A DNA stretch of 32,000 bases from positions 510,001 through 542,000 of the forward strand of contig NC_000908.2 in the NCBI RefSeq assembly GCF_000027325.1, read 5' to 3'. Both the position numbers and the translations under genes were made by a program. The notes under the pieces are model-generated. The model was not told the origin of the DNA. It did no database searches and worked only from the letters and a program-made list of their open reading frames with translations. The first letter of the stretch is position 1; every line of letters begins with the position of its first letter. This stretch comes from Mycoplasmoides genitalium G37 (lineage in GTDB: Bacteria > Bacillota_I > Bacilli_A > Mycoplasmatales > Mycoplasmoidaceae). Positions 6,245-11,461 of the stretch are shown here, in pieces.

Positions 6245-9200
6245 TTAATTTCTTTTCTTAACAATTTTCTTTTTTCTTCATTTTAAAAACAAAACAGCAG
6301 AACTTATCATTAAGCTAATGATAATTCCAAAAATGACTCATAATATTAACTCAACATTTGTATCTTGTTTTTTAATTTCATTTTTTTCTAACTTATCAAC
6401 TTCATAGGATTTATCTTGAGATTTAAGATTAAAATCTGGAACTCTCTTGAATTGCAGGTTATTTTGTTTTAGATAAAATGATAATGCTTTGAAAAGTTGT
6501 GTTTGATTTTCACTAGTAATATCAAATCAAATAGAATTATCAAAACCATTGGCATCTACAATTAAAAGTGTTTGATTATTTGTTATTTTTAAATCATAGC
6601 TAATACTAAATACTTGGTTATCATTATTAACACCTTTAATAAATAATTTTTTTGATCTAACATCGACATCAAAAACTAAATTAAATTGATTTTTATTTTC
6701 TACTAAATGGATGTTAATAAATTTATTCTTTAGGTTAAAGCGGACGTTTTTAGTTGTTTGCAATCTTTTTTCACTTAGAGTAATATTGAGTTTATCAACT
6801 AGTAATTGTTCGTCATTTAAACTAAAAGGTTCATGAAAATCAAGTTGATAATCCTCTAGAAATTTAAATGAAGATGACTTTAAATCTAATTCAGCAATTT
6901 TTAAGTTATCAACTGATAAAAATACCTTGTCTTTTTCTAACTTAAATCCCAGGTCATTTTTATCAACAAAAAGTTTGTTAGTATGAAATTTAAATAAATA
7001 TGTTCTTAATTTAGGGTTTTTTTGATTTTGTGATAGAAAATACATTTTGTCTTTAATAATTTCAGAATCACTTTCAGAACCATATTTGAATAGTTCATTG
7101 CTATTATTTATTTCTGCTAAAACATAAAATATACCTTTCTTTTCATTAGTAGGCTCTAGATGTTTGAAATATTTTTTAGGGTTATCCACAAATGTTAAAG
7201 AGTTACTGTTGATATCTAAATCAATATTCTTATCCTTAGATTTAAAACTATTTTTGATAATGAAAGCCATTTGTCTTTTTTCATAATCATTAAACTTTTC
7301 ATTACGTTTTTTAAGTTCAGCAACATTAAAGTTTTGAACATTTTTATTTAGTGGAATACGAAAATCTTTAGCAATTCAACGCTGTTCATTAAAATCTTTT
7401 CTATATTTAAATTTGTATTCAAAACCATCCTTAGTTCTTTTGATAGTTGAAAGTTTTTTAATACTGTCAAACAGTGGTTCAACACTATAGTTACTAATAT
7501 TTTCTGATTCATATCCATCTACAAAAAAATTAAGTGCTAAAAATTCAATATTCATTTCATTATCTGCTTTCTGTTTTTCTGTTAAAAACTCCTCAATTGA
7601 ACTTAAATCAAAATAATTCTTGTTATTTCTTAACAATGTTATTTCATTTACAGAATTACCAATTTTTACTTTAACAGTTAATGTTGATCTATCAAAAATG
7701 GTTTTGACCATTCTTGGTAAATTTCTAATAAAGAATAGTTCTTCTTTATTGTTTGGTGACATTTGCAATAGGTTGTATAAATAATCTAAATTTGGATAAA
7801 AATTACTTTGATTATTGGTTGAAATATTAAAGCTTTTTAACGCTTCATTTTTATCAATTGATTCATCAATTCTTTGATTAATTAAACTAACTTCTTTAAT
7901 TGCATTTATGAATTTATCTTTAAATTTAATAGTTGGTTTAATTTTTGTACCTATTGTTTCTTTATTTAGAGTTTTTTCAGTTTGACTAACAAGCGAATTA
8001 ATATCAAATTCCAACTGTGAAATTCAAAGCTTTGAAAGATTACTGAAACTAATTGGTAAAACTTCATCAGGATTATTTTGCCTTAGATAAAAACTTATTT
8101 GATGATGAACAACTTCTTGTTCAGGTAATATAGGTGTATGTTTAAAAATATCCCATTTACTGTTGAATGCTTCACGTCTACTATCTTCAGTTTCTGGTCT
8201 AACTACTAATCCATTACCTAGTCTTAATATCGTTTGAGTTATTTCACGATTATTAGTAAATGCTTCAATGATTTTTCTATCCTTTTTCATTTTCTCTTTA
8301 AACTCATTTATACTCATCCAATGAGCATCAACTTGTTTGTTGCTGTTAATAGAAAAAAATCAACTGCTTCTACCAGGAAAAGGTTCGTTTCACTGAGCGT
8401 TATTCTGTTCAAAAACTGGAGGAACTTTCACTAGTTCTAAATCTCATCAGAAACGATAAGCTCTAATTGGTGTCATTGCTAAACCTCATCAGAAATCTGG
8501 AGCTACAAAAATATTATTTTTTCAGTCAGCAAAAAATCCTCTTGATTCTTGGCCAAGATAATATCACATAGGTGCATTAAAATCAATTACATAATTACCA
8601 TTATTACCTTTTCTTAATCATTTAATATTTCTAATAACATCTTCTGGGGTTGGTTTAATCATTCTTAAAGTCGATCCTCACATGTGAACAAACTTAGCTT
8701 CAATAAAATATGCTTTTTTATGACTGGGCTTTGTAAGGTCTCAAAAATAAGGATTATCAGGTTTATATCAACTTTTGTTTCAAGAACCATCTGGATTTGT
8801 ACCAGTTATTTCTATATTCCTAGAAGGAACTTCGGTTCATTTTTCATTAGTATGACCATCTCTTGGAAAAAAATTAGAAATTGCTTGACTATGAAAATAA
8901 AATCTCTGCTCACTATGGATATCAGATGACCATGAGTTTCTAATTCCAGGGTATCTAAATGTAGATGAAAATGCATGTGCAATATAACTACTCTCAATTT
9001 TTAACTTTATGTTCTTTAGATAATAAATATTGTTGTATCAGTGAAAGTTATTATCTCTAATAATTTGTTTGTAATTATCACTATATTTATTAACTAATTC
9101 ACTTCATTCATTCGAATAAGTTTTTGCAAAATAATTATTTTGATTAGGTCTTTGAATTACTTCATTATCAAAATTAAAGCTTTTTCGAAAATAATCGTTT

Positions 9201-9355
9201 TTTAAATTAAATCCAGCTGTATAGCTTCTGTTTTGAATTGTGTTTGGAGAGAGATAAAGATTAGTATCTACCAAGTTTTTTTCAAGTGAAGCATTAGCTA
9301 AAGCAACGGGAAAAAGAAAAGAAACTAATAAAGGAATAAAAAGATATGAACGCAT
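6245..9355 (-). CDS. MG_414: Large uncharacterised type-I membrane/surface protein (MG414-like), 1036 aa: signal peptide, Trp-rich insertion domain, C-terminal TM anchor
   Basis: Fragments 6527..7270, 7376..8014, 8024..8317 and 9104..9355 all share a frame. I translated 8318-9103 and 6245-6526 codon by codon and found only TGA, no TAA or TAG. ATG 9353-9355, TAA 6245-6247. N-terminus MRSYLFIPLLVSFLFPVALANAS; C-terminus ...VELILWVIFGIIISLMISSAVLFLKWRKKKIVKKRN*. The 1036-aa length matches my memory of MG414. Confidence 0.85.
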
Positions 9356-9370
9356 AATTTATCTCATTAA

Positions 9371-9400
9371 ATAAATGTGTATTTAATGAAATATTGACAA
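9371..9400 (-). promoter_or_regulatory. Sigma-20 (MG428)-type promoter: TTGTCA-N18-ATTTAT, 15 nt upstream of the MG414-like ATG
   Basis: The minus strand reads AAAAA-TTGTCA(9400..9395)-ATATTTCATTAAATACAC-ATTTAT(9376..9371)-TTAATGAGATAAATT-ATG(9355). This is an exact match to the consensus TTGTCA-N18/19-ATTWAT that I recall from the M. genitalium sigma-20 literature, where MG_414 is, as I recall, a regulon member. Confidence 0.7.
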
Positions 9401-9419
9401 TTTTTATTGCTAGTTCTTG

Positions 9420-11414
9420 TTAAAAATTATCTCTTGTTTTATTTTTTATCATCTTTTGTTTTTTATTTCACTTATGAAAGTAAATAAAAACAGTGATAAA
9501 CAAAACTAAAACACTAAAACCAATAATCAAATATACTATAATATCTGTTTTTTTATCTTCACTATTAGATTGAATAATTTTGTCTATTTGAAAACTATAG
9601 CTGTTTTTCTTTAAGCTAAAATTAGGTTCTTTTTTAAATTGAAATTTTTTTAATGAGAGAAATAACTTAAGCTCATTTTTCAGTTTCTGATTATTTTTCT
9701 TATCAAGATCAAACCAAATATATTTATTTAAGTAGTTATTTGTTGTTCTAATTTGCAATTCATTTTCATTTTTGATAGCAATATCATAAACAAGGCTAGT
9801 TAATCTATTTTTACTTATATTAACTTCAATATTGAGCTGATTTTTAATTGCATCAACATTTAAATAAAAATGAAGCGAACTATTTATCTTTAGAGTAGTT
9901 AATTTGATCTCTTTAGGAAAAAGATCTAAGCTAGATTTCTTTTTATCTATTAAAAGATTCATTTCACTTAAAGCCAAATTTAGTTTTTTAATTAATAGTT
10001 CTTTATTAGCTAAAGAAAAATAATCATTTATATGAACTTCATAACTTTCAAAAAATGAGGTATTATTTTCTTTTGGATTAAATTCATCTATTTCAACATT
10101 ATTAACAATTACCCTTAATTTATCACCGCTTGATTTAAATCAAATATCATTAACATTTAAAACTAACTTTTTGGTTCTCATTTGAAAAAGATAAGTTCTT
10201 ATTGCAGGAAAGTTTTTATTTTGTTCTAAGAAATACATCTTATCTTTAATGATTTCGCTATCATTTTTAGAACCCCATTTAGTTAAATCATTACTGTTAA
10301 TTATTTGTGCTGAAACATAGAATATACCATTTTTAACACTGGGCTTAATTAAAGATTTTTTAATTAATTTCTCAGGATCTTTTATGTATTTTATTGTAGC
10401 GGATGAAATATTTAAATTGTTTTCTTTTTGAGAAGTAAAACTATTTTTAATTGCATATGTAATTTGTTCTCTTTGATAACTATTTAATCCGTTTTTTTCA
10501 ATGTCATTAACACTGAAATTTTTCTGATTTGTAACAATAGGAATTAAAAAATGATCTTTTAAAATATGATGTTCATTGTATTCAGATCTAAACTTTAAAC
10601 TATATTGAAAACCATTTTTAGTTTTCTGAATAGAAGGCAAATTTTTAACTGACTTAAAAAAAGAATCAACTGGTTGATTTTTTAATGTTCATCCTGTTTT
10701 ATTCACAACAATAAAATCAAAAGTTAAAAACTCAATTTCATAAAAATTAATACCAGTTTGATCAGCATTTAAGAAATTTTCAACATCACTTAATAAAAAA
10801 ACGTTACTGCCATTTTCTATAAAAGTAATTACTTTATTTTTGCCACCTATCTTTATATTTATCGTGATGGTAGTATCTTTAAAAATACTTTTAATTAGGT
10901 TGGGTAATATCCGAATAAAATTTAATGTTTTCTCTTGTTTTGGATTAATGTTAATTAAATTACTTAAGAAAAATATTGCATCAATTCTTTCATCTTTTGG
11001 TTCAAAATCAAATTTAGATTCTTCCTGTTTTTCTAATAAATCTAAAGCAAATTGAAAAAAAGTTTTATCTTTATTTGCTAATTGATCAAACTCTTGATTT
11101 AGCTTACTTACCATTTCAATTGCATTAGAAAATTGATCACTAAATTTCAGCTTTGGTGTTATTTTTGATCCTATTAGTTCTTTGTTTAAAACAGTAGTTG
11201 GATTAGCTATTAAAGAATTTGAATCAAATTCAATTTGGTTAACAATGATCTTAGCAAGTTGATTTGTTGCTATAGTTAATTGATTTTGTGATTGAAAATC
11301 ATCTTTAACTAGATAAAGATTAGTATCAATCAACTTACTTTTTATGGAAGTGTTAGCAAATAATAAGGGAATTATCGCAAAGGAAACTCACTTTAAATAG
11401 CGTTTTCATGACAT
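9420..11414 (-). CDS. MG_415: Uncharacterised type-I membrane/surface protein, paralog of the downstream gene (MG415-like), 664 aa
   Basis: Fragments 9468..9977, 10140..10640 and 10689..11333 share a frame, and the gaps I checked contain only TGA. ATG 11412-11414 (MSWKRYLKWVSFAIIPLLFANTS signal peptide), TAA 9420-9422. C-terminal TM is DIIVYLIIGFSVLVLFITVFIYF followed by a basic tail. Clear paralogy to the MG414-like protein, e.g. NGIFYVSAQIINSNDLTKWGSKNDSEIIKDKMYFLEQN versus KGIFYVLAEINNSNELFKYGSESDSEIIKDKMYFLSQN. Confidence 0.85.
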
Positions 11415-11431
11415 AATAAGCTTTATATTCC

Positions 11432-11461
11432 ATAAATTAAATAAAACTTATTAAGTGACAG
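11432..11461 (-). promoter_or_regulatory. Candidate second sigma-20-type promoter: CTGTCA-N18-ATTTAT, 17 nt upstream of the MG415-like ATG
   Basis: The minus strand reads AAAAAAA-CTGTCA(11461..11456)-CTTAATAAGTTTTATTTA-ATTTAT(11437..11432)-GGAATATAAAGCTTATT-ATG(11414). There is one mismatch (first base of the -35) to the remembered consensus. The A-tract, 18-nt spacer and -10 hexamer are the same as the element upstream of the paralog. Confidence 0.45.

Follow-up and report, generated by a model that had tools for sequence, protein, structure and literature searches.

Two paralogous genes of Mycoplasmoides genitalium for predicted surface proteins, MG_414 and MG_525, each very probably behind its own sigma-20 promoter

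Here we describe two adjacent genes for predicted surface proteins in a 32,000-nt stretch of the Mycoplasmoides genitalium G37 genome (NC_000908.2, positions 510,001 to 542,000; this whole stretch is called the window below). We identify them with high confidence as MG_414 and MG_525, tandem paralogues, each with a promoter of its own that is read by the alternative sigma factor MG428 (sigma-20). The pair had been picked out in a sequence-only reading of the window, made by a model that ran no database searches, and that observation is a correct rediscovery: the regulation, the promoters and the functional hypothesis were already in print, so the finding in itself adds no new biology. What is new is, first, that the MG_414/MG_525 family has very few members, in which no domain or fold can be recognised. 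Second, the linkage of the family to the pst genes and to a sigma-20 homologue, a sigma-20-type promoter in a distant relative and the decay of both genes in M. pneumoniae are new observations that lend modest support to a conserved sigma-20 module.

Two intact paralogues with sigma-20 promoters

The window has a GC content of 28%, and UGA is read as tryptophan. Translation table 11 was rejected, as it splits both surface-protein genes into many short open reading frames (ORFs). ORF calling with table 4 gave two intact minus-strand genes with exactly the boundaries that the sequence-only reading had given for a tandem paralogous pair. The features of the pair, including the codons of the C-terminal transmembrane (TM) helices, are as follows (window coordinates):

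6245..9355, minus strand: MG_414, the long paralogue, encoding a predicted surface protein of 1036 aa (table-4 ORF; matches P0004 at 100%)
6284..6349, minus strand: codons of the predicted C-terminal TM helix (L1003-L1024) of MG_414; the tail KWRKKKIVKKRN comes next (Kyte-Doolittle scan; also a helix in the structure model)
9371..9400, minus strand: sigma-20 promoter of MG_414, TTGTCA-N18-ATTTAT, preceded by AAAAA (exact consensus match)
9420..11414, minus strand: MG_525 (older name MG415), the short paralogue, encoding a predicted surface protein of 664 aa (table-4 ORF)
9477..9542, minus strand: codons of the predicted C-terminal TM helix (I625-F646) of MG_525; the tail HKWNKKQKMIKNKTRDNF comes next (Kyte-Doolittle scan)
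11432..11461, minus strand: sigma-20 promoter of MG_525, CTGTCA-N18-ATTTAT, preceded by AAAAAAA (one mismatch to consensus)

The MG_525 product is 100% identical to an NCBI entry named 'hypothetical protein [Mycoplasmoides genitalium]' (P0003). In BLASTP it aligns to MG_414 at 35% identity (E=6e-108), with residues 8-646 of the short protein matching 400-1023 of the long one, and a second match joins the two N-termini across the signal sequence and the block DTNLYL (E=3e-4). From this pattern, MG_414 corresponds to MG_525 plus about 375 residues inserted after the signal sequence. The MG_414-specific region (residues ~24-400) contains 4.8% tryptophan, against 0.7% in the remainder, and is also enriched in other aromatic residues; this tryptophan-rich part was modelled at very low confidence. 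All three sequence blocks previously quoted as common to the pair were found in both proteins: DTNLYL at residue 30 in each, P(K/T)(L/I)KF(S/K)D(Q/K)F as PTIKFKDKF / PKLKFSDQF across the MG_414/MG_525 pair, and SEIIKDKMYFL at residue 764 in MG_414 and residue 386 in MG_525.

The MG_414 promoter (9400..9371, minus strand) ends 15 nt before the ATG at 9355, and that of MG_525 (11461..11432, minus strand) ends 17 nt before the ATG at 11414, with its -35 box starting 8 nt past the rpsI stop codon. The A-tract-(T/C)TGTCA-N18-ATTTAT arrangement and both distances are thus as the sequence-only reading gave them. That reading also attributed the motif to MG428, and the literature confirms it: the consensus TTGTCA-N18/19-ATTWAT was defined by Torres-Puig et al (2015; PMC4446450), whose Table 1 places TTGTCA-N18-ATTTAT 15 nt from the ATG of MG_414 and CTGTCA-N18-ATTTAT 17 nt from that of MG_525, and whose study included mutagenesis of the -35 and -10 elements. 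Both sites, with N18 and ATTTAT, agree with the pattern of a TTGTCA -35 box with at most one mismatch, N18/19 and ATTWAT, and both lie less than 300 nt upstream of their genes on the same strand. Published motif sites at 519400, 521461 and 531509 of G37 correspond to window positions 9400, 11461 and 21509 plus 510000, and the coincidence of the three identifies the genes as MG_414 and MG_525. The regulon described in PMC4446450 and PMC6105099 is therefore the same object, with the same genes, promoters, distances and coordinates; nothing differs in sequence, and only the older name MG415 had been used in place of MG_525. Motif counts in the window are not above chance (at most one mismatch: 3 with N18 against 2.6 expected, 1 with N19 against 3.05). 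What is non-random is position, with each of two paralogues having a site whose end is 15-17 nt from its ATG, for which we estimate a rough chance of ~1e-3 per gene. The MG428 (sigma-20) regulon was reportedly also the subject of work by Burgos and Totten in 2014.

Published data further cover the induction of both genes that the sequence-only reading proposed. Under MG428 overexpression, quantitative reverse-transcription PCR gave a 6.56-fold increase for MG_414 and a 2.95-fold increase for MG_525 (PMC4446450), and RNA-seq under sigma-20 gave 15.4-fold for MG_414 and 2.8-fold for MG_412, the next gene downstream (PMC6105099, 2018). Primer extension placed an MG428-dependent start site of MG_414 9 nt downstream of its promoter (PMC4446450), within the 6-9 nt past ATTTAT that had been predicted; for the MG_525 promoter we found no published transcription start site. 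One part of the earlier account did not hold: it took the regulon genes of assigned function to act only on DNA inside the cell, and two envelope genes, MG_412 and MG_390 (a putative peptide exporter), are also sigma-20-induced (PMC4446450, PMC6105099).

Predicted topology and domain searches

Both proteins begin with a hydrophobic N-terminus (ending ..VALA|NAS in one and ..LLFA|NTS in the other) and close with one hydrophobic helix and a Lys/Arg-rich tail. Neither contains a single cysteine, so the lipobox of a bacterial lipoprotein is absent and they are not lipoproteins. The architecture proposed in the sequence-only reading (signal peptide, large ectodomain, single C-terminal TM helix, short basic tail) is seen in both, and we class MG_414 and MG_525 as predicted single-pass (type I-like) surface proteins. 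The text of PMC4446450 does not contain the words 'paralog', 'transmembrane' or 'signal peptide', and no description of the paralogy, topology or wider family was found in the searchable parts of the 2015 and 2018 papers.

Pfam and NCBIfam searches with MG_414, MG_525 and six relatives gave no match at the curated whole-protein threshold; the matches were sub-threshold or, in one search, listed by E-value without scores, the best of that list being Insulin_TMD, a model of a TM segment (E=0.0009). A family profile had no significant match in PDB sequences, where the best hit had E=0.36. For MG_525, an AlphaFold model made from the single sequence was of no use (predicted local distance difference test score 33), with only the C-terminal TM helix confident, and the MG_414 model, built from an 8-sequence alignment, was usable for residues ~440-990 only. 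Foldseek matches of the latter to InvD, TbpB and heparinase were rejected for their TM-scores below 0.15.

A possible role in gene transfer

Combining the literature with the predicted topology, the following mechanism can be proposed. The first part is shown in the literature: once sigma-20 is stabilised in rare ON cells (~0.5%), RNA polymerase carrying it starts a few nucleotides past ATTTAT and yields near-leaderless mRNAs, and MG_414 and MG_525 are induced together with recA, ruvAB, rrlAB and the downstream MG_412. The N-terminal hydrophobic segment would then direct the large ectodomain through the membrane, where the C-terminal helix and the Lys/Arg tail behind it would serve as the anchor. 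At the surface of sigma-20-ON cells, the two proteins might assist in pairing with a neighbouring cell or in handing DNA to it, a role that we put forward tentatively and regard as doubtful. MG_525 would also somehow add to recombination efficiency. The surface role draws its support from two observations: fluorescent sigma-20-ON cells, rare as they are (~0.5% of the culture), are usually observed in pairs, and sigma-20 overexpression turns cells into DNA donors, in a transfer that is DNase-resistant and RecA-dependent (PMC6105099). The authors of that study suggested that regulon proteins with TM domains could make the cell contacts for gene transfer, and a paper of December 2025 still terms M. 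genitalium transfer an unusual form of horizontal gene transfer (HGT), its surface machinery undescribed there. In M. genitalium, sigma-20-dependent transfer is believed to disseminate antigenic variants as well as antibiotic resistance, and MG_414 and MG_525 are reasonable candidates for its surface machinery.

Several observations weigh against this picture. On the protein side, we know of no recognisable signal peptidase I in M. genitalium, and cleavage of the signal peptides is only putative. Sequence searches matched MG_414 and MG_525 to no known adhesin, fusogen or conjugation protein, and Foldseek with the weak MG_414 model gave no credible match in PDB or BFVD. On the side of regulation, MG_525 is missing from the 2018 RNA-seq list (PMC6105099) and was induced just 2.95-fold in 2015 (PMC4446450), and in an MG_428 deletion strain the MG_414 transcript stands at 0.79 of wild type (PMC6105099), so basal transcription is largely independent of sigma-20. 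Both orthologues are disrupted in all M. pneumoniae sequences examined (see below), and our literature search found no mating data for mutants of either gene. The mutants that have been described give a divided answer to the expectation, in the sequence-only reading, that deletions would change recombination: the MG_414 deletion strain shows wild-type recombination and unchanged RecA expression, against the expectation, and the MG_525 deletion strain recombines ten-fold less, in line with it, with normal transposon transformation (PMC4446450).

The general logic resembles that of Firmicutes competence (ComX/SigX of streptococci), in which a small dedicated sigma factor acts in a subpopulation, where it activates both recA and the envelope proteins that serve DNA exchange. 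Unlike competence regulons, neither MG_414 nor MG_525 has a competence pilus or ComEA/ComEC-type domain in Pfam and NCBIfam searches, and M. genitalium recipients took up no naked DNA in the mating set-up of PMC6105099.

The same surface location would also suit proteins that face the host, as adhesins, immune-evasion proteins or variable antigens of the sigma-20-ON cells that generate MgpB/MgpC variants. Their large size, surface anchoring and restriction to few lineages (10 hits in 1.84 billion proteins) would fit, as would the fact that sigma-20 also drives MgPar-derived transcripts linked to antigenic variation and that its activity drops in non-adherent mutants; the variable disruption among M. 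pneumoniae strains resembles that of surface antigens switched on and off. We nevertheless consider this quite improbable, since the two proteins resemble neither the P1/P110/P140 adhesins nor any binding domain, no repeat-driven variation was noticed in either gene (no repeat search was aimed at them), and binding to the host does not account for the recombination defect of the MG_525 deletion strain.

Disrupted orthologues in M. pneumoniae

The M. pneumoniae homologues are MPN612 for MG_414 and MPN613/MPN614 for MG_525, at 40-46% identity to the M. genitalium pair. The locus (L003) has the same order, rplM-rpsI-(hsdS fragments)-MG525 orthologue-MG414 orthologue-pstS-pstA-pstB-phoU, and both orthologues keep published promoters just upstream, TTGGCA-N19-ATTTAT and TTGGCG-N19-ATTTAA. 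In MPN612 an in-frame TAA stands directly before the TM helix and basic tail (L003 10700-10856 and 7711-7986), so the annotated 997-aa protein lacks the anchor; in other M. pneumoniae strains the gene is split, into products of 91+900, 636+315 or 432+238 aa. The MG_525 orthologue is frameshifted into two overlapping ORFs (L003 5604-7596, around 6562-6626) beside a T-run (ggttttttc), which could mark a pseudogene or a phase-variable site.

This decay invites the reading that the two genes are a costly remnant that does little today, whose promoters still respond to sigma-20 and whose proteins are dispensable and being lost. It agrees with earlier transposon work, in which MG_414 and MG_415 were insertion hot spots, strongly over-represented, and disruption sped growth, so that mutants outgrew the wild type; the lack of a recombination phenotype in the MG_414 deletion strain points the same way. 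We still find it rather unlikely: both genes are intact in M. genitalium, whose genome is among the smallest known, and the sequences recovered are nearly identical; the MG_525 deletion strain has its ten-fold defect; promoter and sigma-factor linkage are kept in distant relatives; and genes that are a burden in vitro need not be useless in the host.

Distant relatives and linkage to pst and sigma-20 genes

An exhaustive HMMER search over 1.84 billion representative proteins returned 10 hits, namely M. genitalium itself, pieces of the orthologues in M. pneumoniae, and three relatives that are distant but full-length. The latter (P0012, P0008 and P0011; 1056-1217 aa) are all of the long type and share the layout of an N-terminal signal sequence, a single C-terminal TM helix and a poly-Lys tail, with one block, G.FY..A.I.NS..L...G...D.EI, that is strongly conserved and leads into an aromatic pair and Gln. 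As all three are long, the MG_414 architecture is probably ancestral and MG_525 a duplicate that has lost the N-terminal region. Word-indexed protein searches matched almost exclusively M. genitalium and M. pneumoniae, the scan of genome contigs gave one true relative (L001), and the metagenome scan gave no match. A 42-residue match in a Vulcanimicrobiota metagenome-assembled genome (L002) was rejected as spurious. Two mollicute loci with distant homologues, L004 (25% GC) and L005 (43% GC), were found only in Logan assemblies.

The neighbouring genes of the window that bear on the comparison are:

1373..4991, minus strand: pstA-pstB-phoU (MG_411, MG_410 and MG_409), ORFs that with MG_412 form the pst operon
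4991..6124, minus strand: MG_412, a PstS-like phosphate-binding lipoprotein, directly downstream of MG_414 (ORF; the M. pneumoniae orthologue has PBP_like_2)
11470..11883, minus strand: rpsI, ribosomal protein S9, directly upstream of MG_525 (ORF; 84% identical to the M. pneumoniae Ribosomal_S9 gene)
23807..24322, plus strand: MG_428 (rpo20), the sigma-20 factor of 171 aa (table-4 ORF; Sigma70_r4_2 and Sigma70_ECF matches in Pfam)

The last of these bears out the statement in the sequence-only reading that MG428 is encoded in the same window. A gene of the MG_414 family lies directly beside pstS-pstA-pstB-phoU in four lineages (M. genitalium, M. pneumoniae, L004 and L005). The arrangement is tandem in the window (1373-9355) and in M. 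pneumoniae (L003 8001-15711), and divergent in L004 (2693-11456) and L005 (4574-13654), where other neighbours and the order of the pst genes differ. L004 also encodes, at 12330-12899 on the minus strand, a 189-aa Sigma70_r2/r4_2 protein with 33% identity to MG428 (E=7e-15). It lies near a ptsI gene and at a distance of about 900 bp from the MG_414 homologue (8001-11456); ptsI adjoins MG_428 in M. genitalium. No sigma-20-like motif was detected in front of the L004 homologue. In L005, TTGCCA-N19-ATTAAA (9953-9983, plus strand) ends 17 nt before the ATG of the MG_414 homologue. The relaxed motif is expected ~1.15 times in the 23.7-kb locus, and the chance of its falling at that exact position is roughly 5e-4. 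This identical position suggests that the sigma-20-type promoter is older than the genitalium/pneumoniae clade, and the comparative links, as read from sequence, speak for a long-standing tie between the family and the sigma-20 system.

The pst linkage could also be read as functional, with the family assisting the Pst phosphate transporter at the cell surface. It would capture or process some substrate that contains phosphate, which might be extracellular DNA or nucleotides, and so supply the PstS-like lipoprotein and PstA-PstB; sigma-20 would then raise the phosphate or nucleotide supply during recombination. Besides the adjacency in four lineages, tandem or divergent, this would agree with the induction of MG_412 (pstS) itself by sigma-20 from a start site of its own (PMC6105099). 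No terminator-like site was found on the minus strand from 5900 to 12207, that is, from the rplM region to MG_412 and so between MG_525, MG_414 and MG_412. Transcription therefore probably reads through at two points, out of the ribosomal-protein operon into MG_525 and out of MG_414 into MG_412, which would explain why MG_525 is only weakly induced and why the 2018 list lacks it. A precedent comes from conjugation by integrative and conjugative elements (ICEs) in ruminant mycoplasmas, where the recipient lipoprotein P48, an ABC-transporter substrate-binding protein, and the donor ICE protein CDS14 are the known cases of mycoplasma surface proteins that cell-to-cell DNA transfer requires (PMC12892991). 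P48 thus controls conjugative DNA acquisition, and nutrient-binding proteins and gene transfer can be linked. The comparison of P48 with the sigma-20-induced, PstS-like MG_412 beside MG_414 is by analogy only: no homology was detected, and M. genitalium, which lacks an ICE, transfers DNA in a RecA-dependent manner that does not involve mobile elements. We judge a partnership with Pst unlikely: its evidence is adjacency only, in four lineages of one clade, so that shared ancestry is possible; family and PDB profile searches detected no nuclease, phosphatase or binding domain; pstA, pstB and phoU are not on the sigma-20 list; and the lowered recombination of the MG_525 deletion strain is not obviously explained.

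Returning to a role in gene transfer, a more ambitious version would make the family the surface machinery that is missing from ICE-independent, RecA-dependent transfer, as a mating-pair or membrane-fusion factor with an unseen fold, joined in an old module by the sigma factor and the lipoprotein resembling PstS. What points to such a module is the linkage conserved in distant mollicutes, and we hold this version to be improbable.

Other features of the window

For MG_412, the region directly upstream (window 6125-6244, minus strand) contains no consensus sigma-20 motif with at most one mismatch. This contrasts with the sigma-20-dependent start site published for the gene. The nearest candidates there are TTGGCT-N18-AATAAT (6207..6178) and a GTGTCA at about 6170 that is not followed by a properly spaced -10 box.

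The third published motif site in the window, TTGTTA-N19-ATTAAT (21479-21509, minus strand), was listed as a candidate for MG_423, 261 nt upstream of that gene, with no validation reported there (PMC4446450). It cannot serve the 86-aa ORF at 21220..21480, because its -10 box overlaps the ATG of that ORF.

The 110 nt before the MG_428 ATG contain no sigma-20 or sigma-70 consensus, though positive autoregulation has been published. Between the gene at 23271..23696 and MG_428, a strong hairpin at 23714-23743 (-15.6 kcal/mol, z=-4.3) has A and T runs on its flanks, and from its sequence it looks like a bidirectional terminator that would insulate MG_428.

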